Positions 10,804 to 37,073 of a DNA stretch of 54,940 nucleotides are shown here, piece by piece. The position numbers and the translations under genes were made by a program. The notes under the pieces are model-generated. The model did not search any database. It saw nothing but the letters and a program-made list of their open reading frames with translations, and was not told the origin of the DNA. Source of the stretch: Clostridia bacterium (GTDB taxonomy: Bacteria; Bacillota; Clostridia; Christensenellales; UBA1242). The stretch's first letter is position 1, and the number at the start of each line of letters is the position of its first letter. The DNA is taken from the NCBI GenBank assembly GCA_017481235.1, contig JAFUPL010000050.1, forward strand, positions 1 to 54,940. The letters are read 5' to 3'.

Positions 10804-13275
10804 TTATTTAACTACAAAATTTAATTTATTATTTTTGCAATCTACCATAACAGTATTACCGTCTTTAATTTCGCCACGCAAGTACATATCGGCAAGTTCG
10901 TCCTCAATTGCATTGGTAATAAGTCTACGTAATGGTCTTGCGCCATAATCGGCATTTGTACCATTTTTAATCAAATACTTTAGCGTGCTAGCACTAAATT
11001 TAAGAGTAATATTTTTGTCCTTTAAATTTTTGTTAAGTTCGGCAAGCATATTTTTAGCAATTTCACTAACCACATCTTCTCCAAGTTTGTTAAACACAAC
11101 AATATTGTCAATACGGTTGATTAGTTCTGGACGGAAATACTTTTTAAGTTCATCTAATGCCACTTGTTTTAAGTCCATATCCGCTTGAGATTTGTCGCTA
11201 AATCCTAGTTCCATACGCTTGCTATTTAACTTGTCACTACCAACATTAGAATTAAGTACAATAATTGTATTTTTAAAACTTACCACACGACCATGACTAT
11301 CAGTTAACCTGCCATCTTCCAAGATTTGAAGCAACATATTAAATACATCTGGGTGTGCCTTTTCAATTTCGTCCAAAAGCACTACGCTATATGGTTTGCG
11401 ACGCACTTGCTCAGTTAATTGTCCGCCATCATCAAAACCAACATATCCTGGAGGAGAACCAATAAGTTTTGACACGCTATGTGCTTCCATATATTCACTC
11501 ATATCTAGCCTAATCATTTTGTCGTCGCTATCAAACAATGCGTTTGCAAGTGCTTTACAAAGTTCGGTTTTACCAACGCCCGTTGTACCTAGGAACAAAA
11601 AACTTCCAATCGGACGGCGTGCGTCACGCATACCAATACGACCGCGACGAATTGCCTTAGATACAACTTTGATTGCCTCATCTTGACCTTTAACACGTTC
11701 ACTTAAAGTAGTTTCCAATTTTAGCAATTTTTCACTTTCGCCTTCAGTTACTTTTGTAATAGGTATACCCGTCCACTTGCTAACCACTTCAGCAATCTCC
11801 TCTTCCCCAATCTCTGCTGGAGTTTCAGGTTGAGTGCTTGGTGAATTTTTAAGTTCTTCAAGTTGTTTTTTGATATCACTTATTTCGTCGCGAAGTTTAC
11901 TTGCTTTTTCAAAGTCTTCTTGAGTTACCGCATCTTCTTTGTTTGCGTTAAGTTGACTTAATTTGTCTTTTAATTCTTTTTCTTGTGTGCTTGAATAGTT
12001 GTTTTTAACTTTTGCCCTTGATGATGCTTCGTCAATTAGGTCAATTGCCTTATCTGGCAAACTTCTATCTAAAATATACTTGTCTGAAAGTTTAACCGCT
12101 GATACAATTGCCTCATCAGTGATTTTAACCTTATGAAACGCCTCGTAACTATCACGCAATCCTTTAAGAATAGTAATTGTATCATCTACACTAGGCGGAT
12201 TAACCATAATAGGTTGAAAACGACGCTCCAGTGCCTTGTCTTGTTCAATGTATTTGCGATATTCGTCGGTGGTAGTTGCTCCAATTGTTTGCATTTCGCC
12301 TCGTGCAAGATATGGTTTAATCATATCCGCTGGTGAAGTTTCGCCTTTGTCACTACCCGCTTGCGCAAGTGTGTGAATTTCATCAATAAATACTATTATA
12401 TTTTTACTGGTCATAATTGTTTCAATAGCATTTTTTAACTTTTCTTCCATGCTTCCGCGATACTTAGTGCCCGCCATAAGTCCACCAATATCAAGACTAT
12501 ATATTGTTTTGCCTTTTAAAATTTGAGGGACATCACCCGCTACAATTTTTTGCGCCAAACCTTCAACAATTGCCGATTTACCAACGCCCGCTTCACCAAT
12601 AAGTACTGGGTTGTTTTTGGTTTTACGGCACAAAATTTCAATCACACGTTCAATTTCGGCGTCACGTCCAATAATAGGGTCAATTTTACCTTGTTTTGCC
12701 CTTAATGTCACATCACTTCCCATTTGCAAAAGTTCGTCACTTAACTCACTAGTATGCACATCTGGAGTAGTTGCAAAATCCTCTTCTGCTTGTTTGTTAA
12801 TTTTTCCAACGCGAACAAATCCTTCGTCATTAAATCCATTTTGAGGTTGTTGCTTAGTTGATATAATGGCAAGCATTTTAGAACGCATTTCATACACGTT
12901 AAGTTTTAATGCTCCCGCCAAAATTTGAATAGCATAACTATCGTTTTGTGACAAAAGTGAAACTAGCATATGTTCGGTGCTAATATAGTTAGTGCCAGTG
13001 CGCTTTGCCACTTCATTTGAAATCACAAACAATTCTTTTGCCCTAGGCGAAAAGTCGCCAACACGTGCACCAAATCCGCTACCCATATTGTCAAGCACTT
13101 GCTCCATCACACTGGTTGTAACCTTATATGATTTTAATAATTTTGATGCTTGACAATCAACTTTAGTAAGTCCGTATAATATATGTTCTGTACCAATTGG
13201 ATTGCCATATTTACGTGCAACACTTTGCGCATACTGAATACTTTTGTTTGCTAAATCCGTTAAATTATATATCAT
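10804..13275 (-). CDS. clpC: ATP-dependent Clp protease ATPase ClpC
   Basis: Two Clp-N repeats (GTEH/STEH), Walker A GEAGVGKS and [11 protein letters not shown] middle domain, GARPLRR; downstream of ctsR-mcsA-mcsB. Confidence 0.95.
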
Positions 13276-13453
13276 ATTTTCTCCTTTTTATTTTTTACAA
13301 ATTATTAAAATATAATTAATAAATTAATTAAATTATTTTAATAATATTTACAATTAAAACAATTAATAATTGTATTGTTTTTAATCTGTTTTATAGTTTT
13401 TTTTAATTTAAATTTAATTAATTTTATTTTTTTATTATTTTTTTACTAATTTT

Positions 13454-14362
13454 TTATTTGAATATTTTTTGTAATTCAGTTGCTAATTGCTTAAAATCAT
13501 TTTCATATAATTTCACGCAATTTAATGCCTGATTTATTTGATTGCTTGTCAACTGAGTTTCAATTCCAGCATTAAATCCAACTAAAATATCACCAAGCAA
13601 AACATATGCTTCACTTACGCTAATTTTTAAACAATTATTTAATATTGCTTTTGCTCTACGAAATTTGTCTTCAACATCGTCACTGTCGTTTGATAGTTTC
13701 TTAGCGGTTTCAATTTCAAGTTTTATAAGTTTGTCGATATATGTTTTTGTAAGTTCGCAAATTTGTTTTTCGGTGTATCCCAAGGTTGCCCTAGTTCTAA
13801 TTACACATAATCCACTTTGACGGTCTAAATATGTTAAATCAAAAACCAGTTTTTCATTAGCGTTTGGAAGTTTGTCCAATGCATAAATTTGTGCAAGGGA
13901 AGGCAATATTACTTTAGTTTCAATGCTCATTCCGCTTCCAATACTTTTGATATCTGGTGTTAAAAATCCATATTTATCATTATATGCAAAATGTAATTTA
14001 TTACACAACTTTTTATCTACTTCTTTTGCTTTTGAATACGCCTCATAAATATTGTGGTGCTTTGAAAATATTTCAATATGATTTTTATTATTGATTTGAA
14101 CGGTTACATCATTGTCATGCGCACATCCTTGATTAGAACTCGCATACACAAAATCATGCTCAAGCATATCACTTGCTATCAAGTTGCCAACCACCTTTTT
14201 GCTCATTTCACTTAAAGGTACACACTTTAATCCACAAGCATTAGTCGCATTAAGGCATAGTTTTAATATTTCTTTTTGTTGTTCATCATAAATATTTGTT
14301 TCAAACTTACAATCTTTTAAGTTTCTTACAAACTTAACTTTTGAATATATTATATTACTCAC
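13454..14362 (-). CDS. mcsB: McsB-like protein arginine kinase homolog with degenerate catalytic motifs
   Basis: Operon position; SKVKFVRNL, FAYNDKYGFLT and TLGYTE match the McsB fold; the NEEDH and CPTN motifs are replaced. Confidence 0.75.
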   Translation of the reverse strand: MSNIIYSKVKFVRNLKDCKFETNIYDEQQKEILKLCLNATNACGLKCVPLSEMSKKVVGNLIASDMLEHDFVYASSNQGCAHDNDVTVQINNKNHIEIFSKHHNIYEAYSKAKEVDKKLCNKLHFAYNDKYGFLTPDIKSIGSGMSIETKVILPSLAQIYALDKLPNANEKLVFDLTYLDRQSGLCVIRTRATLGYTEKQICELTKTYIDKLIKLEIETAKKLSNDSDDVEDKFRRAKAILNNCLKISVSEAYVLLGDILVGFNAGIETQLTSNQINQALNCVKLYENDFKQLATELQKIFK

Positions 14363-14858
14363 CTTGCAACTCCTTAGTCAACTTTTTAATTTCTTTGTTG
14401 ATTACACCCGCGTCTTCATAACGTTCTTCTTTAATTGCTTTTTGCAAGTCCGCTTTTAAATTGGTCAGTTTTTGCTCTTTTGTAAGTGCTTTCTTTTGGT
14501 TTCCAACTTTAAATTCAATATTGTCAATTTTGTTTTCAGTGTATGGTTGAATACGTTTTACAATGTCCTCAATTTCTTCCTCAAATGTATTATAGCACTC
14601 ATCACAACCAAGTTCGCCCAACTTTTTAAATTGACTTAAACTCCAATTACATTTAGGACAAAATTTGTCGTCAAAATCATCAAATCCTAAAAAGTTAGTA
14701 AGACTTCTAAATTCATCAAAAATAGAATTGTAGGTTTTATTTAATACTCCCTCTTTTGTTGCACATTCTTCACATAGATGAGTAGATTTAACCTCACCAT
14801 TTATTACAAGCGTAGAATGATAACACGCTTCATGTTTTTTACATTTATCACACAACAT
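14355..14858 (-). CDS. mcsA: McsA arginine kinase activator
   Basis: Four CxxC motifs and a C-terminal UVR domain (AIKEERYEDA). Confidence 0.9.
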   Translation of the reverse strand: MLCDKCKKHEACYHSTLVINGEVKSTHLCEECATKEGVLNKTYNSIFDEFRSLTNFLGFDDFDDKFCPKCNWSLSQFKKLGELGCDECYNTFEEEIEDIVKRIQPYTENKIDNIEFKVGNQKKALTKEQKLTNLKADLQKAIKEERYEDAGVINKEIKKLTKELQGE

Positions 14859-14860
14859 AA

Positions 14861-15313
14861 TTAACTCCTTTTCATTATCTCTATTATAATCTCTTTTAGT
14901 ATATTTGCTCTTAGCATTTCTTCCATATTAAGCGGATTATTCAGTGCTTTTGTCGAAAGTGCTCGTTTTAATATTTGATTTTCACTTATAGTTAGCATTT
15001 TTCTTGATAGCAGATTATCTAATATTTGACCACCATCAGTTTCAGTCAATGGTTGCGAACACAGATTTATCAAATTTTGCAAATTAGCATTATTATTGCT
15101 TAATCTAGTTACTTTAATAAATCCTGCCCCTCCTCGCACGCTTTCAATAACGTAACCATTATTGACCGTAAATCTAGTGTTAAGCACATAATTAATTTGA
15201 CTAGGCGCACATGCAAAAAACTTTGCCAAATCATTACGACTAAGTTCAATAAAACTATCTTGCGCCAATGTCTTTAGTATAAATTGCTCAATTATGTCAC
15301 TTCTACTTGCCAT
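14861..15313 (-). CDS. ctsR: CtsR class III heat-shock repressor
   Basis: SDIIEQFI, CAPSQINYVLNTRF, ESVRGGAGFIKV; start re-called at ATG 15313 (GGGAGG RBS). Confidence 0.92.
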   Translation of the reverse strand: MASRSDIIEQFILKTLAQDSFIELSRNDLAKFFACAPSQINYVLNTRFTVNNGYVIESVRGGAGFIKVTRLSNNNANLQNLINLCSQPLTETDGGQILDNLLSRKMLTISENQILKRALSTKALNNPLNMEEMLRANILKEIIIEIMKRS

Positions 15314-15403
15314 ATATTTACCCTCCCAATTAAATTTTGTCACACCGACCAAGTGTTACTAACACGAGCGGTGTGTATCTCACTCAATATTAAAGGTTTC
15401 AAG

Positions 15404-15458
15404 TTTGACTTTCTTTGACCTTTAATACTATTATAATACCCAAATTTTCGTTTGTCAA
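15404..15458 (-). promoter_or_regulatory. Sigma-A promoter and CtsR box of the ctsR operon
   Basis: Minus strand TTGACA-17nt-TATAAT (15458..15430), followed by GGTCAAA-GAA-AGTCAAA heptad repeat (15420..15404) matching the CtsR operator consensus. Confidence 0.9.
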
Positions 15459-15538
15459 CCAATTTTGCCAAAAATTTTTAAAATTTTTTTATACACAAAA
15501 AACCCGTCCTTATAAAGAACGAGTTTTTATTGATTTAA

Positions 15539-16024
15539 TTAAAATATGGCTTTAAATATCATCCCCGCCACTATATAACTTAATAATAGTGCCGTCACAA
15601 GAATTTCAATGGAAATAATAACTTTCAGATACCATTTATCAATTTGACGCACTATCATAGCGTTTGTAAATGCCAGTCCTCCACCTATTCCGCCTACAAA
15701 TGCACCAGCAATTACACTTTTATTTATAATCCCAAATGTTAAGCACGCTACAAGGATTGATAATGATAAAACAATTTCGTACCATGTTAACTTTCGTGCG
15801 ACTTCAATGGTTTGACCAAAAGCATTAATAGTAATGCCTATTAACTGATTGCCCTTAATGGTAAACTTCTCTACCACATCATCTTTTTTATATTCATAAA
15901 CACTACGTTTAATTTTGGTTAAAATTACTCCATCATATACAATTGTACGTTTACCCGTCCAAAAACTCTCTTCAAACTCCAATACCTTATTATTGGTTTG
16001 TTCATTATTAATTGTAACTTTCAT
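15539..16024 (-). CDS. Hypothetical membrane protein (beta-rich N-terminal domain plus 3 TM)
   Basis: Starts 9 nt after the stop of 16034..19471, AGGAG RBS; three hydrophobic C-terminal helices. Confidence 0.75.
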   Translation of the reverse strand: MKVTINNEQTNNKVLEFEESFWTGKRTIVYDGVILTKIKRSVYEYKKDDVVEKFTIKGNQLIGITINAFGQTIEVARKLTWYEIVLSLSILVACLTFGIINKSVIAGAFVGGIGGGLAFTNAMIVRQIDKWYLKVIISIEILVTALLLSYIVAGMIFKAIF

Positions 16025-16033
16025 ACTTTTCTC

Positions 16034-19000
16034 CTAATATTCCCAAACAGCAACATTGCCATCATTATCATAATACCAGTAATTACCCGCATCTTCAGGT
16101 TTCTCACTAGAAAAATAATACACTCTAGCATTTATAGTACATTCAAGTTCAATAGCCTCAAATTGTTCCTGTGTTCCATTATAATAAATATTTTCCAAAC
16201 TGTCACAACCTTCAAAAACTTCTTCACCTATAATTTGGATACCCGAGCCCAACACCAAAGTAGTTAAATTAGTACAATTTTTAAAATTATAATTACGTAT
16301 AGTGGTTATAAGATTCGATTTCATAATAACAGTTTTTAAAGAGGTGCAACCATAAAAACTTCTATAGGTCATCTGTTCCACTTTTTCAGGAATAACCACC
16401 TCCTCTAATGACGAGCAATATTCAAACACTCCTAATCTGCCTTCATAACCAAATATTTTAAGATTGGTTGGCAATGTAACTCTTTTCAAGTTAGTACAAT
16501 TATAAAACGTTTGGTCTAAGGCGGTAACTTTATCTGGGATATCAATTTCCTTAAGTGCCGTACAATTATAAAAAGCATGATAACCTATTTCTTCCAAACT
16601 ATCTGGCAATACAACACTTTCTAGGTTTGTACATTCATAAAAACATTTTTCACCCATAGATTTTAAATTATTGGATAATTTTACATATTTAACAGAAGAC
16701 CCCATAAATATTTGATATCCCATTACAGTAACACTATCTGATATATATACATTTTCTATATTAGTATTAAAGAAAAATGTACTTCCATATAATTTTGTAA
16801 TATTATTTGGCACATACACGTTTTTATCTGTGCCAATATATTTATCTGCTATTTTATTTCCTCCTTCCCAGGAATAATATGTAAAATCATCTTTTGTATA
16901 ATATGCATTGATATACACATTAAAATCCATAGGCGTTGTTAAACTATAAGTAGTTTTATCTTCCCCATTTATAATAAGTTTAGTACATTCAACATCCGAG
17001 TACATATTATTATCAAAATAATAACAACCGCTTGGATTATAATAAGTTATGTTATATGGGAATTTTTCTCTTATTATTTCCTCACTTTTTAACACCTTGT
17101 TGTTTTTGTCTTTATAAGTAATTCTAAACTTTTCACTATTCCAATTAGGTCTAAGTATAAGATTTTCATAATTAGCTGTTGGAACGCTCCACATTATATC
17201 ATTATCTTGGTTTATCCACCCAAAAAAACCAGTATCTTCCTTAAAAGGTATTGGCAATTCATAAGGTTCCATTGCGTATGTATATTCTGTAATATACCTT
17301 TCGTCAGTTTCAATCCCTTCCATGTTATAAGTTATTGTATAGGTTATTGGTTTCCAATTAGATACAAAGTGTAAATCTCCAATTGAACCAGACGGAATTG
17401 TGACTGTTAGTTTAGGTGTTAAAATATCTGCACTAGTCCAACCTATAAATTCAAAATGCTTTGCCGATACATTAGGCAAATTAAAATCATCATCTTCAGA
17501 TTTATAAAATGCTTTTTCGCTTTCAAAAATAGGTTGTACATATTCATTATTTGTGCTATAACTAATAGTATAATCCCCTCGCTCCCAAACAGCCTCTAAA
17601 TGTAAAAGTCCATAACTAAATTGTTTAACTTGAGTAATTATTGTTTGCGTATTTAGTTTCCAACCTACAAACGTATAATGCTCTCTAGTTGGTATTGGCA
17701 ATGTAAATGTTGGGGTTTCATAAGTATATTCATTAATATAAGTGCCATTATTAATAGCATTACTTAGGCTTCCTAAATATTCATATGTTATTTTATAAGT
17801 TTGTAGTTCCCAATGAGCAACAAAATACTTTTCGCCGTAAGAATATTTAGGAATTACAACATTTAGTGTTGGCTTGGTTATTCCCTCTCCTGTCCAACCT
17901 ATAAATTTATATACATTATTATTACAAGTTATATTTGGTAAATCGAACTCCTCATAATATGTATAATAATATTTCATCTCTCGATTTCCTAGTGGAACAA
18001 GTTCATTGCTAGATGTATATGTAATTGTATATTTTACTGCTTGCCAATAAGCTTTTACTTCAACAACACCATTGTTGGTGGTTGTTAAATTCTTAAACTT
18101 GGTGGTGTTAGGATAGTAAACAACACTCGTTGTCGTCATAAGCCAATATTTAAAATTGTAGTGTGCGTAAGTAAATGTATTGTCGGGAAGAGTATATTCC
18201 TTGCCATACTCACATATCATATTTGACATAAAACCATTTCCGCCATTTGAGTTAAATCTAACAATATATGTATTTGCCTTCCATTTTGCATACAATGTTG
18301 TATTTACTTTTATCCCTTGATTAAAATCAAAAGGAATTGTACAATTTGAGTCAATATACCAACCTTCAAATTGATAACCTGTTTTAGTTATAGTTTTTGC
18401 TGAAACCTTTGCATTATATGCTATTGATGATGTAGCATACACTTCACCATCGCTCATAAAAGTTACAGTATGATTACCATGCTTTTCAGCAAGTTGAGCA
18501 AGCGTTCCATTAAAATCTCGTTTAACACTCTTAATTTTATTAATAGGTATTGCTAAATTCATATAATTAGTCGCAACACCATTTATCGTTATTTGTCCGG
18601 ATGTAATGCCTATAACCTCGCCCCTATTATTTACTAGTACTCCACCACTATTGCCATTGGTAATATCAGCGGTAGTTTGAATATATGTATTACCTTCGAT
18701 AGTATACGCTTTTTTTGATACAATGCCTTGTGTTAAAGTGCTATCCATACTGCCCAATGCATATGCTTGCGGATAACCTATTGCATAAACCGTTTCACCA
18801 ACTTTAACTTTATTGCTATTACCCAATCTCACGGGTTTTGATTTCTTAATATCAATTTGGATAATTGCAATATCTAAATCCTCATCATATCCAACAACTT
18901 TTTTTATATTATAAATTTTACCATTATTTAATTGAACTTTGCCACTAGTGCATTTTTTAATCACATGATAATTTGTAACCGCTAAACCTTTATCATTTAT

Positions 19001-19471
19001 GAAAAATCCTGTACCAGTTTGAATTGTATTAGAATATTCTGCCTTAATACAAAAAACTGATGGGTCCACCATTTTATATATTTGACTACTAGAATATTTA
19101 ATAGGTACAAGTGCTACAATTAATGATAGTAATAATACAATACACCCAAGTCCCGCCACCAAATACCAAGGTTTTAACTTTACAAACTTGGTAAATTCAA
19201 ATTTAGGTTTGGTATTAGATATGGTATTGTTTGTAATATTAGAGTTGGTATTATATATTTTATCTGGATTATTTGCCATATCAAAAAATTCAGATACTGT
19301 TATATTAAAAATATCCGCCAATTTTTCAATGGTAACCAAATCTGGTTCTGACAAATCATTCTCCCATTTAGACACCGCTTGATATGAAATATTAAGTTTT
19401 TCCCCTAATTGCGCTTGTGTTAAGTTATTCTTTTTTCTTAACTTGGCAATCAAACTTCCATATTTTTTCAA
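16034..19471 (-). CDS. XRE-HTH / TM / trypsin-like S1 protease / InlB-B (Listeria-Bacteroides) repeats / BspA-type LRR fusion
   Basis: LTQAQLGEKLNISYQAVSKWEND (HTH_3); TM WYLVAGLGCIVLLLSLIVALV; triad TNYHV/DIAII/GNSGG; repeated GYxFxGW...LYAKW; LRR_5 repeats LPDSLEEIGYHAFYNC; TTG start with GGAGG RBS. Confidence 0.85.
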   Translation of the reverse strand: MKKYGSLIAKLRKKNNLTQAQLGEKLNISYQAVSKWENDLSEPDLVTIEKLADIFNITVSEFFDMANNPDKIYNTNSNITNNTISNTKPKFEFTKFVKLKPWYLVAGLGCIVLLLSLIVALVPIKYSSSQIYKMVDPSVFCIKAEYSNTIQTGTGFFINDKGLAVTNYHVIKKCTSGKVQLNNGKIYNIKKVVGYDEDLDIAIIQIDIKKSKPVRLGNSNKVKVGETVYAIGYPQAYALGSMDSTLTQGIVSKKAYTIEGNTYIQTTADITNGNSGGVLVNNRGEVIGITSGQITINGVATNYMNLAIPINKIKSVKRDFNGTLAQLAEKHGNHTVTFMSDGEVYATSSIAYNAKVSAKTITKTGYQFEGWYIDSNCTIPFDFNQGIKVNTTLYAKWKANTYIVRFNSNGGNGFMSNMICEYGKEYTLPDNTFTYAHYNFKYWLMTTTSVVYYPNTTKFKNLTTTNNGVVEVKAYWQAVKYTITYTSSNELVPLGNREMKYYYTYYEEFDLPNITCNNNVYKFIGWTGEGITKPTLNVVIPKYSYGEKYFVAHWELQTYKITYEYLGSLSNAINNGTYINEYTYETPTFTLPIPTREHYTFVGWKLNTQTIITQVKQFSYGLLHLEAVWERGDYTISYSTNNEYVQPIFESEKAFYKSEDDDFNLPNVSAKHFEFIGWTSADILTPKLTVTIPSGSIGDLHFVSNWKPITYTITYNMEGIETDERYITEYTYAMEPYELPIPFKEDTGFFGWINQDNDIMWSVPTANYENLILRPNWNSEKFRITYKDKNNKVLKSEEIIREKFPYNITYYNPSGCYYFDNNMYSDVECTKLIINGEDKTTYSLTTPMDFNVYINAYYTKDDFTYYSWEGGNKIADKYIGTDKNVYVPNNITKLYGSTFFFNTNIENVYISDSVTVMGYQIFMGSSVKYVKLSNNLKSMGEKCFYECTNLESVVLPDSLEEIGYHAFYNCTALKEIDIPDKVTALDQTFYNCTNLKRVTLPTNLKIFGYEGRLGVFEYCSSLEEVVIPEKVEQMTYRSFYGCTSLKTVIMKSNLITTIRNYNFKNCTNLTTLVLGSGIQIIGEEVFEGCDSLENIYYNGTQEQFEAIELECTINARVYYFSSEKPEDAGNYWYYDNDGNVAVWEY

Positions 19472-19506
19472 AGATATTTTCCTCCGCTTGTTTTGTTTTC
19501 AAGTTT

Positions 19507-19561
19507 ATTATATCACACGCATATTAAAAATAGCAATATTTTGCACTCAACTTTTGGTTGA
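19507..19561 (-). promoter_or_regulatory. Promoter and palindromic operator-like site upstream of the HTH-protease-LRR gene
   Basis: TTGCTA-18nt-TGnTATAAT; inverted repeat TCAAC-TTTTG-GTTGA at 19547-19561, just upstream of the -35. Confidence 0.5.
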
Positions 19562-19642
19562 ATTACTTTATTTTTAGTGGAATTTAACACATTGTTGCAT
19601 ATAATATTTTAAAATTGTATTTATAATATAATAAACTCAATA

Positions 19643-20080
19643 CTAACAAGTCATTTCGCTAGTGTTAATCAAATTTTGTGCCCAATTATAATAATCTCTT
19701 TCTATCAGTTCTTTCTCCTTATTTGAAGCAATAGAATATTTGCTTACATATTCGTTTAAAATTTGACCTTCCTTAGTTTCAAATTTATAATCTTTAAGAT
19801 ATGATATTATTCTAACAATATTTTCTAATTTATTAATATAGTCTTCTTCATTATTTTTTAATGCGCTATATCCGTTTAGCATTATCCCGCGTAAATATTC
19901 TGCCTCATCTACAACGTTAGAACTAATCACCACATTTGCAGCATGATGTTTGGCTGCTGGAAAATTTTTTGCTTTTTTAATTGCCTTAAAATACGAATCG
20001 GCATTTACAAATACTGTCAATTCTTGTTCTTTTCCGCCACCACCATGTCCCGCTCTTAGTATAAATTTATAAAATAACAT
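19643..20080 (-). CDS. Hypothetical protein with GH...KHH motifs
   Basis: Start re-called at ATG 20080 (AGGAG RBS); RAGHGGGGK and PAAKHH motifs. Confidence 0.65.
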   Translation of the reverse strand: MLFYKFILRAGHGGGGKEQELTVFVNADSYFKAIKKAKNFPAAKHHAANVVISSNVVDEAEYLRGIMLNGYSALKNNEEDYINKLENIVRIISYLKDYKFETKEGQILNEYVSKYSIASNKEKELIERDYYNWAQNLINTSEMTC

Positions 20081-20166
20081 ATTTACTCTCCTAATCATAT
20101 TGTATCACATTGTATAAAAAAAATCAAGTGTTGCCACTCAATTTTAATATATTGGCGCAGTTTAAT

Positions 20167-20964
20167 CTAGTTCGTTTGAACCAGTATTTGATTATTAATT
20201 CTATTGTAAAAATCTTTAATTACTTTTTTAAATTCACTAGGTAATTTTGCTAATGCTTTATTTTTTAATTCCTTATCAATTCCAAACATGGCTTCTGCCA
20301 TACTTCCAACAATGCAGGCATTTGTATCTGTATCTCCACCAAAAGATATTGCAATACGTATACTTTCTTCAAAACTATTTGAATTAAATAGAGAATATAA
20401 GCATAAGTCAATTGTCTCCGCACAAGTGTAATTAAATTTTTCAATATTAGGTTTTGTAATTTTTAAATTTAATTTATTTATTATTTCTTGTTTGGATAAT
20501 CCTTGCCTTGCATAAAAAATTATCAATGCCACAGTTTTAGCGCAGTTTATTGCTTCATCGCTATTATGTGATGGAATTGTTGCAAGATAAGAATTTTTAA
20601 CAACATCTTTTTCAGTATTAAATAAAAATCCAACAGGTGAAATTCTCATCATTGCGCCATTGCCAGCACTTTCTCCTTGGTAATCAGACTTTGCCCACTT
20701 AACAAAATTTGGAGAAAACATTGTTTTAAAGTATGGAATATGATTTGGAATATAGGTGCTATAAATAATAGCATACTCTTTTAATTTATTTTCATAATTC
20801 ACATTATTTAATATTGCATCTGCAATAGCCATAGTTAAAATGGTGTCATCACTAAAAAATGAATTGTCTTCTATAATACTATTAATTTTTATAGGACGAC
20901 AATTTTTAATTTGTTCATATTCATATATTGACCCAGCCAAATCGCCAATTATAGCACCTAACAT
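20167..20964 (-). CDS. ADP-ribosylglycohydrolase (DraG/ARH family)
   Basis: MLGAIIGD, FSDDT, GNGAMMRISP, GGDTDT motifs. Confidence 0.92.
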   Translation of the reverse strand: MLGAIIGDLAGSIYEYEQIKNCRPIKINSIIEDNSFFSDDTILTMAIADAILNNVNYENKLKEYAIIYSTYIPNHIPYFKTMFSPNFVKWAKSDYQGESAGNGAMMRISPVGFLFNTEKDVVKNSYLATIPSHNSDEAINCAKTVALIIFYARQGLSKQEIINKLNLKITKPNIEKFNYTCAETIDLCLYSLFNSNSFEESIRIAISFGGDTDTNACIVGSMAEAMFGIDKELKNKALAKLPSEFKKVIKDFYNRINNQILVQTN

Positions 20965-21062: not shown

Positions 21063-21150
21063 TGGCGCAAAGAGAGGGATTCGAACCCTCGGAAGCGTGA
21101 ACTTCACACGATTTCCAATCGTGCTCTTTCGACCACTCAGACATCTCTGC
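21063..21150 (-). tRNA. tRNA-Ser(GGA)
   Basis: GCAGAGA/TCTTTGC acceptor stem, anticodon arm CACGA-TTGGAAA-TCGTG, long variable arm, GGTTCGAATCC, encoded CCA. Confidence 0.95.
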
Positions 21151-23803: not shown

Positions 23804-23877
23804 GGCACCATCGCCAAGTGGTAAGGCCAAGGTCTGCAAAACCTTTATCATCAGTTCGAGTCTGATTGGTGCCTCCA
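23804..23877 (+). tRNA. tRNA-Cys(GCA)
   Basis: GGCACCA/TGGTGCC stem, anticodon arm AAGGT-CTGCAAA-ACCTT, TTCGAG loop, U discriminator, CCA. Confidence 0.95.
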
Positions 23878-23942: not shown

Positions 23943-24030
23943 GCCGATGTGGCGAAATGGCAGACGCAAGGGACTTAAAATCCCTCGGGGGGAAACTCCC
24001 GTGCCGGTTCGAGTCCGGCCATCGGCACCA
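23943..24030 (+). tRNA. tRNA-Leu(TAA)
   Basis: GCCGATG/CATCGGC stem, anticodon arm AGGGA-CTTAAAA-TCCCT, long variable arm, CCA. Confidence 0.95.
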
Positions 24031-36690: not shown

Positions 36691-37041
36691 CAGCTTGGTC
36701 AGATGGTCGCAGGATAGTTGTAATGGCTATCGTGAGGAAAGTCCGAGCTTCACAGAGCAGGGTGCTGGCTAACTACCAGTCTAGGCAACTAGAAGGAAAG
36801 TGCAACAGAAATATACCGCTATACCCCTGAGTGGTTATTGTAAGGATGAAAAGGCGAGGCAAGAGCTCACCGCACACTTGGTGACAAGTGTGGTCCATGT
36901 AAACCCCACCCGAAGCAAGGTTAAGAAAAACGTTATTAGTTGCTCGCTAAGTTTTTCAAAAATACCGCTAAAATTGATACGGTAACGATTAATTTAGATA
37001 GATGACCATCAAATACAGAACTCGGCTTATAGACCAAACTG
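36691..37041 (+). ncRNA. rnpB: RNase P RNA (type A)
   Basis: GAGGAAAGTCCGAGC, GGAAAGTGCAACAGAA, TAAACCCC, AGATAGATG, ACAGAACTCGGCTTA conserved regions; P1 pairing CAGcTTGGTC/GACCAAaCTG. Confidence 0.95.
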
Positions 37042-37073
37042 CCACCTAAATGCTTTCATCCTTTTCGGATGAC

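Follow-up and report, generated by a model that had tools for sequence, protein, structure and literature searches.

The window analysed here, a 54,940-nucleotide stretch of DNA from a Clostridia bacterium, encodes on its reverse strand a 1145-residue protein in which an XRE-type helix-turn-helix (HTH) domain, a single transmembrane (TM) helix, an HtrA-type serine protease domain, a stalk of Flg_new repeats and a leucine-rich repeat (LRR) block follow one another. This HTH-TM-protease arrangement, probably a variant of the transmembrane transcription regulators (TTRs), is real, recurrent and, as far as our searches go, undescribed. On balance, sequence comparison leads us to favour the view that the protein is an uncharacterised, self-regulating member of this class whose outer part serves as a surface protease and binder.

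We infer DNA binding by the protein's own HTH, the nature of the signal, the direction of regulation and the role of a small neighbouring protein, and posit the following arrangement. Held at the membrane on a flexible linker of ~25 residues, the HTH would bind a conserved operator of three half-sites that ends ~10 bp upstream of the -35 element of the gene's own extended -10 promoter. Binding would autoregulate a two-gene operon consisting of the HTH-protease gene and the gene of a small protein with three TM helices, the gene's own promoter being the nearest DNA target because the product inserts into the membrane while it is being made. Outside, the HtrA-type protease would lie against the membrane, followed by the Flg_new stalk and a BspA-type LRR head. 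This outer part may be an independent surface module for proteolysis and binding, and in relatives it is found on a plain or lipoprotein-type signal peptide, without the HTH. The HTH would report the state of the ectodomain (ligand or substrate occupancy, or oligomerisation), not self-cleavage. The features, in window coordinates, are as follows:

16034..19471 (-), gene of the HTH-TM-protease-Flg_new-LRR protein (open reading frame (ORF) list, Pfam, homologues, contigs)
19271..19471 (-), XRE (Cro/C1) HTH, residues 1-67, predicted cytoplasmic (Pfam HTH_3 and AlphaFold)
19196..19270 (-), N/T-rich linker, residues 68-92, predicted disordered (predicted local distance difference test, pLDDT, below 50 at residues 76-92)
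19103..19195 (-), single TM helix, residues 93-123 (hydropathy and AlphaFold)
18512..19090 (-), HtrA-type S1C protease domain, residues 128-320 (Pfam, TIGR02037, structure search)
16832..18472 (-), six to seven Flg_new (Listeria-Bacteroides or InlB B) repeats, residues 334 to ~880 (Pfam, TIGR02543, motif)
16037..16831 (-), BspA-type LRR block (LRR_5, LRR_8) and aromatic C-terminal tail, residues ~881-1145 (Pfam)
19481..19485 (-), ribosome-binding site (GGAGG), 9 nt upstream of the start codon TTG
19507..19536 (-), putative promoter, TTGCTA (19536-19531), 18-nt spacer and TG-n-TATAAT (19515-19507, with TATAAT at 19512-19507); 10 of 12 matches, TG present
19546..19562 (-), core candidate operator, inverted repeat TTCAAC-CAAAA-GTTGAG (conservation and matrix score)
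19577..19582 (-), distal half-site TTCCAC, its start lying 20 bp upstream of the palindrome's TTCAAC half-site
15539..16024 (-), small gene, 161 residues, predicted eight-strand beta domain (residues 2-76) and three TM helices (ORF list, AlphaFold)

The HTH matched Pfam HTH_3 at residues 8-62 with 57.5 bits (cut-off 23), and an AlphaFold model of residues 1-340 (34-sequence alignment, mean pLDDT 84.1) placed five HTH helices at residues 4-67 with pLDDT above 90. Nine residues, G5, R12, T18, Q19, L22, S34, K35, W36 and E37, were invariant in the 34 aligned sequences, which points to strong constraint on the domain. The linker that follows differs in length and sequence among loci. Hydropathy gave a single hydrophobic segment (residues 97-115), modelled as a helix at residues 93-121; its cytoplasmic flank is rich in lysine (KPKFEFTKFVKLKPW), with five lysines against two on the outer flank, and its outer face carries a conserved IPxKYS. 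From the K-rich flank before the helix, and because no signal peptide precedes the HTH in the 1145-residue protein, we infer a topology with the HTH inside and everything else outside. This prediction, which also fits the AlphaFold model, agrees with an earlier note on this DNA that had expected the HTH in and the protease out.

Trypsin_2 matched residues 153-289 at 108.3 bits (Pfam), and the protease barrels occupy residues 128-315 of the model. The catalytic triad H169/D200/S275, recognised from the motifs TNYHV, DIAII and GNSGG, is intact. The NCBIfam model TIGR02037 covered the protease part only, at 134.9 bits and far below its cut-off of 416.2, and a search of solved structures ranked HTRA1 (3nwu, E 7.9e-24) first and DegP, DegQ and MucD next, again for the protease domain only. 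A PDZ domain after the protease was not among the Pfam matches of the 1145-residue protein. In the stalk, Flg_new scored 90.6 bits in three stretches (Pfam) and TIGR02543 matched in four (NCBIfam). Repeats were counted by motif; an iterative hidden Markov model count had drifted onto unrelated segments. Five [YF]x[FL]xGW cores are clear (residues 366, 438, 521, 599 and 673), and inspection by eye adds a sixth (GFFGW, near 745) and a degenerate seventh, so that the "about six" repeats of the earlier note were a fair estimate. The terminal block matched LRR_5 at 145.9 bits in three stretches as well as LRR_8, and bears a weak likeness to the adhesin HupY/LrrG (65 bits, far below the NCBIfam cut-off). 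ORF list, Pfam, hydropathy and model together bear out the union of XRE HTH, single TM helix, S1 triad and LRR_5 in one ORF that the note had described.

That the domains were joined by misassembly alone, or that the gene is a pseudogene, we regard as extremely improbable. The source is a metagenome-assembled genome (1.04 Mb in 53 contigs, 88.8% complete, G+C ~30%, the window being contig C30), and nothing in favour of this explanation was found. Against it, the domain order recurs in 11 genomes, HTH and protease stand in line in 155 of the 343 fetched proteins (all homologue sets together), and the reading frame, which begins with TTG, stays open over 1145 codons. The window DNA is present in sequencing runs recorded as gut metagenomes. 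Two of the runs, possibly the source of this DNA, gave single 6.3-kb contigs across 15400-19700; the promoter/HTH/TM/protease and protease/Flg_new junctions are also crossed by contigs of another sample (18827-19529 and 18196-18775), and a run of a different study contributed contigs at 19101-19373 and 18454-18664. The worry about a chimera voiced in the earlier note is thus answered by these contigs and by the relatives that share the order.

Homologues were taken as the best 120 of 529 with E <= 0.001, among 8000 scored candidates, and 86 of these best 120 carry the N-terminal HTH together with the protease. The first 340 residues had 222 cluster representatives at E <= 1e-30 among 1.84 billion. 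Databases name the relatives only as "InlB B-repeat-containing protein", "trypsin-like peptidase domain-containing protein" or "helix-turn-helix domain-containing protein". A sister group of ~32 of 120 proteins in a separate listing, 380-475 residues long, has the order HTH-TM-Trypsin_2 with a small C-terminal domain and no stalk. The recognition helix of this group (P0129-P0234) reads SRQSISLWEN, some members end in a Cys-rich tail, and the catalytic H and S were intact in 16 of 16 inspected. Thus the core invention appears to be HTH-TM-protease, with stalk and head drawn from the surface modules of the lineage.

Autoregulation is supported by the DNA in front of the gene. A three-part site, TTCAAC-N14-TTCAAC-N5-GTTGAG (TTCmAC for the distal hexamer), precedes the gene in all 11 genome loci compared (the window, L001, L002, L021 and L146-L152), whose protein N-termini are 38-64% identical to that of the window, and AGGAG-like sites lie at the position matching the ribosome-binding site in the other compared loci. 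The AT-rich spacers around the conserved blocks vary freely. The palindrome that the earlier note had singled out before the -35, TCAAC-CAAAA-GTTGA at 19561-19547 (-), 10 nt upstream of TTGCTA, is present and conserved, although it is the core of a site with three half-sites and not the whole element; the note had suggested a check for the site and the 15539 gene in homologues, and the site was present at all 11 loci and that gene at 8. Seven loci have the perfect core, and the other four carry one to three changes (L001, TTAAC...GTAGAG; L021, GTAGAG; L151, GTTGAA; L152, TCTAC...GGTTAG). A TTCAAC-like distal hexamer, with the variants TTCCAC, TTCTAC, CTTCAC and ATCAAC, was found at the 20-bp offset in every locus (21 in L147, with N15 there).

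Within the host genome, a matrix built from the other 10 loci gave the window site 45.3 bits and the next best site 13.6 (2.08 million positions, both strands). The perfect TCAAC-N5-GTTGA 15-mer has 11 copies in the 1.04 Mb, against ~1 expected from composition, and only the window's copy is intergenic; the other 10 lie within ORFs (nine in ORFs of 131-1278 residues, one in overlapping ORFs of 74 and 145 residues). In the genomes of five relatives the 16-mer of the site occurs 1 to 6 times, the copy before the gene always among them. A site that moves with the gene and apparently has no second target in the genome is what autoregulation predicts. Inverted repeats of the 5-N5-5 form are typical binding sites of XRE dimers.

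An extended -10 (TGnTATAAT or TGnTATACT) follows the site by 31-33 nt in 10 of the 11 loci. Taken alone, the promoter-like match is not significant, a scan having given 34 sites where shuffled sequence gave 30.1. From centre to centre the three half-sites are spaced by 20 and 10 bp, and all would therefore lie on one face of the DNA. If transcription starts ~7 nt after the -10, the inverted repeat spans about -61 to -47 and the distal hexamer about -82 to -77. Since the site lies upstream of the -35, activation, or repression through upstream contacts, is favoured over simple occlusion, and this position leans towards activation as the sign of regulation. Other identities for the element were rejected: by sequence it is not a CtsR box, a LexA Cheo box, CIRCE or a set of OmpR-type direct repeats, and a terminator scan found none, so that the inverted repeat does not terminate the upstream gene.

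Changes in the recognition helix track those in the site. The window helix reads Y30-Q-A-V-S-K-W-E, and the seven loci with S-Y-Q-A-[VI]-S-K-W-E (then N) all have the perfect core. Y30S in L001, L021 and L151 (S-S-Q) and Y30F in L152 (S-F-Q) mark exactly the four loci with a deviant site, which occupy four different tips in a maximum-likelihood tree built from the 11 N-termini. An alignment to the 434 repressor makes Y30 the residue that opens the recognition helix, where bases are contacted. An XRE HTH of the QAVSKWEN type also heads many other Bacillota proteins (L005-L080), some with 1-6 TM helices and others soluble and ~160 residues long, and two such proteins are encoded in the host genome (a 204-residue ORF on C53 and a 360-residue ORF on C47).

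Several observations weigh against a self-regulating membrane protein. Three of the four deviant loci are on the longest branches of the tree (L021 1.87, L152 1.48 and L151 0.83; median 0.55), and general divergence could therefore yield the same helix-site pattern. A factor other than the protein's own HTH could bind the conserved site. In L147 (G279, 1399-1529) a -10-like hexamer lies only 22 nt after the site, which there would overlap the -35 position. The small gene is absent after L021, L149 and L152 (3 of 11 loci), and homologues of the small protein, 22-34% identical, occur by themselves in 4 of 200 further genomes from the order, with no HTH-protease gene within 8-12 kb around them. 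The protease occurs without the HTH in 15 of the best 120 homologues, 14 of which have an LRR like that of the query, and five HTH-less homologues start with a lipoprotein-type signal peptide according to a simple pattern; as these relatives share the protease and the LRR ectodomain, the outer part needs no regulator. The family is, furthermore, patchy and concentrated in Clostridia with ~1-Mb genomes. This patchiness follows from the genome samples: full-length relatives were found in three named genome records (L001, L002 and L021, 3 of the 80 loci kept; genomes of 1.0-1.4 Mb with one copy each) and in seven more among 150 evenly sampled genomes of the family of these three, whereas the window's own family gave nothing strong in any of seven genomes (0/7, TM-protease query) and a 400-genome, order-wide sample gave none with the 340-residue N-terminus as query (0/400). 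A 200-genome sample of the order returned only ordinary HtrA-sized ORFs with the TM-protease query. A metagenome scan added at least two HtrA-like loci (32-34% identity), which were not used.

In an alternative that we consider rather doubtful, the HTH-TM part is a mere anchor or a protein-binding module, as in RodZ, and the site belongs to another regulator. HTH-less relatives with the same ectodomain speak for such a scheme, and shorter zinc-ribbon-TM-Trypsin_2 relatives exist as well (P0168, P0174, P0175 and P0180). The ectodomain is that of a common surface family, since the host encodes no fewer than 12 further LRR_5 ORFs, and Bacillota are rich in HTH-TM proteins that join this type of HTH to many different C-termini. 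On the other side stand the recognition-helix changes that follow the site changes, the 5-N5-5 form of the repeat, which is typical of sites for XRE dimers, and the Pfam result, in which neither the RodZ C-terminal domain nor HTH_25 was among the 12 matches (E <= 0.01) of the window protein. A separate regulator would also have a regulon of one, because the site accompanies the gene in 11 genomes without a second genome copy. A search for HTH-less relatives as a control for the site returned nearly only LRR/Flg_new matches, and the protease only in genomes already known for the HTH form.

The earlier note had proposed that the HTH is controlled either by autoregulation or by self-cleavage that releases the regulator. 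The palindrome is conserved at each of the 11 loci, unique in the genome and matched by the helix changes, all of which supports autoregulation through it; release by self-cleavage as the general mode is not supported. A self-processing receptor would have the ligand activate the protease, which cuts its own or a neighbour's juxtamembrane segment, whereupon a site-2 protease frees the HTH as a soluble regulator. We judge this decidedly unlikely, even though the window protein and 7 of 11 loci retain the whole triad, KPWY and IPxKYS, both juxtamembrane motifs, are conserved, the linker is predicted by AlphaFold to be disordered, and the genome encodes a Peptidase_M50 site-2 protease (378-residue ORF, 205 bits). 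M50 proteases matched in 14 of 14 control genomes, so that their presence says little, and with the protease outside and the HTH inside, release of the HTH would need a second step.

Four loci (L021, L149, L150 and L151) have lost the catalytic His and Ser, two of them also the Asp. They form one clade (support 98/96 in the tree of 11 N-termini). HTH, TM helix and site persist in all of them, and L150 and L151 retain the small gene too, an argument against self-cleavage as an obligate step. As the gene is single-copy in each of the four genomes, there is no active paralogue of the family to cut in trans. At least one triad residue is missing in 8 of 34 aligned relatives, and a motif test, possibly with a few miscalls, gave 27 of 86 in the wider set. 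Self-cleavage as the general mechanism of the family is thus disfavoured by the sequences, though it may operate in the active clade.

The small gene starts 9 nt after the stop of the HTH-protease gene, as the earlier note had reported for a 3-TM gene, and in 8 of 11 loci it abuts or overlaps that gene (-52 to +10 nt). Its product may be a partner of the HTH protein, as the note had suggested. Its model (pLDDT 86.3) shows an N-terminal beta domain without a signal peptide, probably cytoplasmic, and then the three TM helices. The protein has no Pfam or NCBIfam family, a cluster search gave only Bacillota "hypothetical protein" clusters, and a fold search returned nothing at E <= 0.001, with FAIM-NTD (3mx7, E 0.03) as best match. 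A predicted complex of residues 1-135 of the HTH protein with the small protein reached a score of 0.01 and a mark of 0.32. At window position 15723, in the small gene, the window has T and contigs of four out of four runs have G, which changes codon 101 from Asn to Thr on the coding strand.

Directly downstream, on the same strand, window 10804-15458 holds ctsR, a 167-residue ORF, a McsB-type ATP:guanido phosphotransferase gene and clpC (Pfam CtsR, ATP-gua_Ptrans and AAA_2/Clp_N). The 167-residue ORF, with no firm Pfam match and only DUF7685 below threshold, occupies the position of mcsA in other Bacillota. ctsR has its own perfect TTGACA-17-TATAAT promoter (15458-15430), and the terminator scan found no terminator-like site between the small gene and the cluster. 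Upstream of the HTH-protease gene are a 151-residue ORF without a Pfam or NCBIfam family (19643-20098 (-)) and an ADP-ribosylglycohydrolase gene (20167-20964 (-); PF03747, 107.9 bits), neither of which was seen beside the gene in the other listed loci. The window further contains a class A RNase P RNA (36691-37045, 280.8 bits) and three tRNA genes (21066-21150, 23804-23874 and 23943-24027).

In the host genome the HTH-protease gene is single-copy. A stretch at C14:6253-6987 (+), 30% identical to residues 97-326 (TM and protease) and interrupted by in-frame TGA and TAA, may be a decayed paralogue, and a 70-residue HTH ORF is located on the same contig (C14:241-420). The other LRR_5 ORFs are spread over C26 (four of 872-1350 residues), C6, C33, C45, C39, C35, C28, C40 and C27, and C46 carries a giant Flg_new ORF of 4856 residues. 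Surface repeat proteins take a large share of the coding capacity of this 1-Mb genome; of 151 genomes in a related family, 47 had a match to a surface repeat protein of such kind.

A more far-reaching idea, which we put forward as speculative and would not expect to hold in full, is a one-protein route from surface to promoter. The LRR head, on a stalk spanning the wall, would bind a ligand on a host or particle, and binding would change the oligomeric state of the HtrA-fold domain, which in a third of the family might be a protease without activity, retained for sensing or as a scaffold. A trimer as in HtrA would then bring three flexibly tethered HTHs onto the three same-face half-sites, giving contact-dependent positive feedback. 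If true, this would be a self-contained sensing circuit in a ~1-Mb genome, with neither kinase nor soluble regulator. 

The family is of interest apart from this idea. Its natural variants with active and dead protease separate catalysis from signalling, and the likely regulon of one would make heterologous reconstitution simple. The family also suggests how very small genomes with few regulators could tune costly surface proteins, and it provides an initial clue to what the many LRR/Flg_new surface proteins in uncultured gut Clostridia do. The known membrane-tethered regulators are mostly a few Gram-negative ones, and the majority of those catalogued have no recognisable sensor domain (PMC10269533); the present family would add a case of Gram-positive type whose modular ectodomain is very large and whose candidate operator is clear.

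No description of an HTH-TM-S1 protease protein came up in full-text searches of the literature, in agreement with the earlier note, which had not recognised the architecture as a described system; in homologues the architecture recurs. Membrane-held one-component regulators are an established class (PMC10269533, PMC3968067). According to the main text of the TTR census, the HTH is the commonest DNA-binding domain and ~57% of TTRs have no other recognisable domain, and this main text mentions neither trypsin nor peptidase (PMC10269533). The window protein has a recognised DNA-binding domain, as TTRs do, and, by prediction, a TM helix with that domain on the cytoplasmic side. Like ToxR, TcpP, CadC, VtrA and BcrR, it would combine a membrane-tethered cytoplasmic DNA-binding domain with extracytoplasmic or in-membrane sensing, its own topology being predicted. 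The HTH of BcrR is likewise of XRE type, and BcrR has four TM segments. It is a one-component transmembrane regulator of a Gram-positive bacterium and, unlike the window protein, has no ectodomain (PMC3968067). ToxR, TcpP, CadC and VtrA use an OmpR-type winged helix, whereas the window protein uses an XRE domain (HTH_3). In ToxR/ToxS, TcpP/TcpH and VtrA/VtrC a small membrane partner is encoded just downstream (PMC9214523, PMC11323476). The small downstream gene resembles these partners in position but not in build, having a predicted, probably cytoplasmic beta domain and three TM helices instead of a periplasmic domain. We found a protease, a repeat stalk or an LRR in none of the described TTRs; the window protein has all three.

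With HtrA, DegP, DegQ and DegS (MEROPS S1C) the window protein shares the protease domain and an intact triad. In Gram-positive HtrA the protease also sits just outside the membrane on an N-terminal anchor, and DegS is a precedent for the HtrA fold as an envelope sensor. The HtrA family differs in its one or two C-terminal PDZ domains, in place of which the window protein has an N-terminal HTH, the Flg_new stalk and the LRR, and, unlike in HtrA/DegP, a third of the relatives of the window protein are catalytically dead. Fusions of an HTH to a serine protease are also known from the LexA-like XRE-S24 proteins (PrlP of Streptococcus suis, HdiR), in which self-cleavage tunes the regulator (PMC12273997). 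PrlP and HdiR are, however, soluble cytoplasmic proteins with an S24 Ser-Lys protease in one compartment, whereas the S1 protease of the window protein would lie across the membrane from its HTH.

The BspA-like LRR and InlB B-repeat surface proteins of Bacillota and Bacteroidota have LRR_5 and Flg_new in common with the window protein, which differs from them in its N-terminal TM anchor behind a DNA-binding domain and in the protease between anchor and stalk. RodZ, finally, likewise has an N-terminal XRE-like HTH, one TM helix and an extracytoplasmic C-terminus. It is a conserved core gene, and its HTH binds MreB. Unlike RodZ, the gene in the window is patchy in its distribution and is accompanied by its own conserved site.

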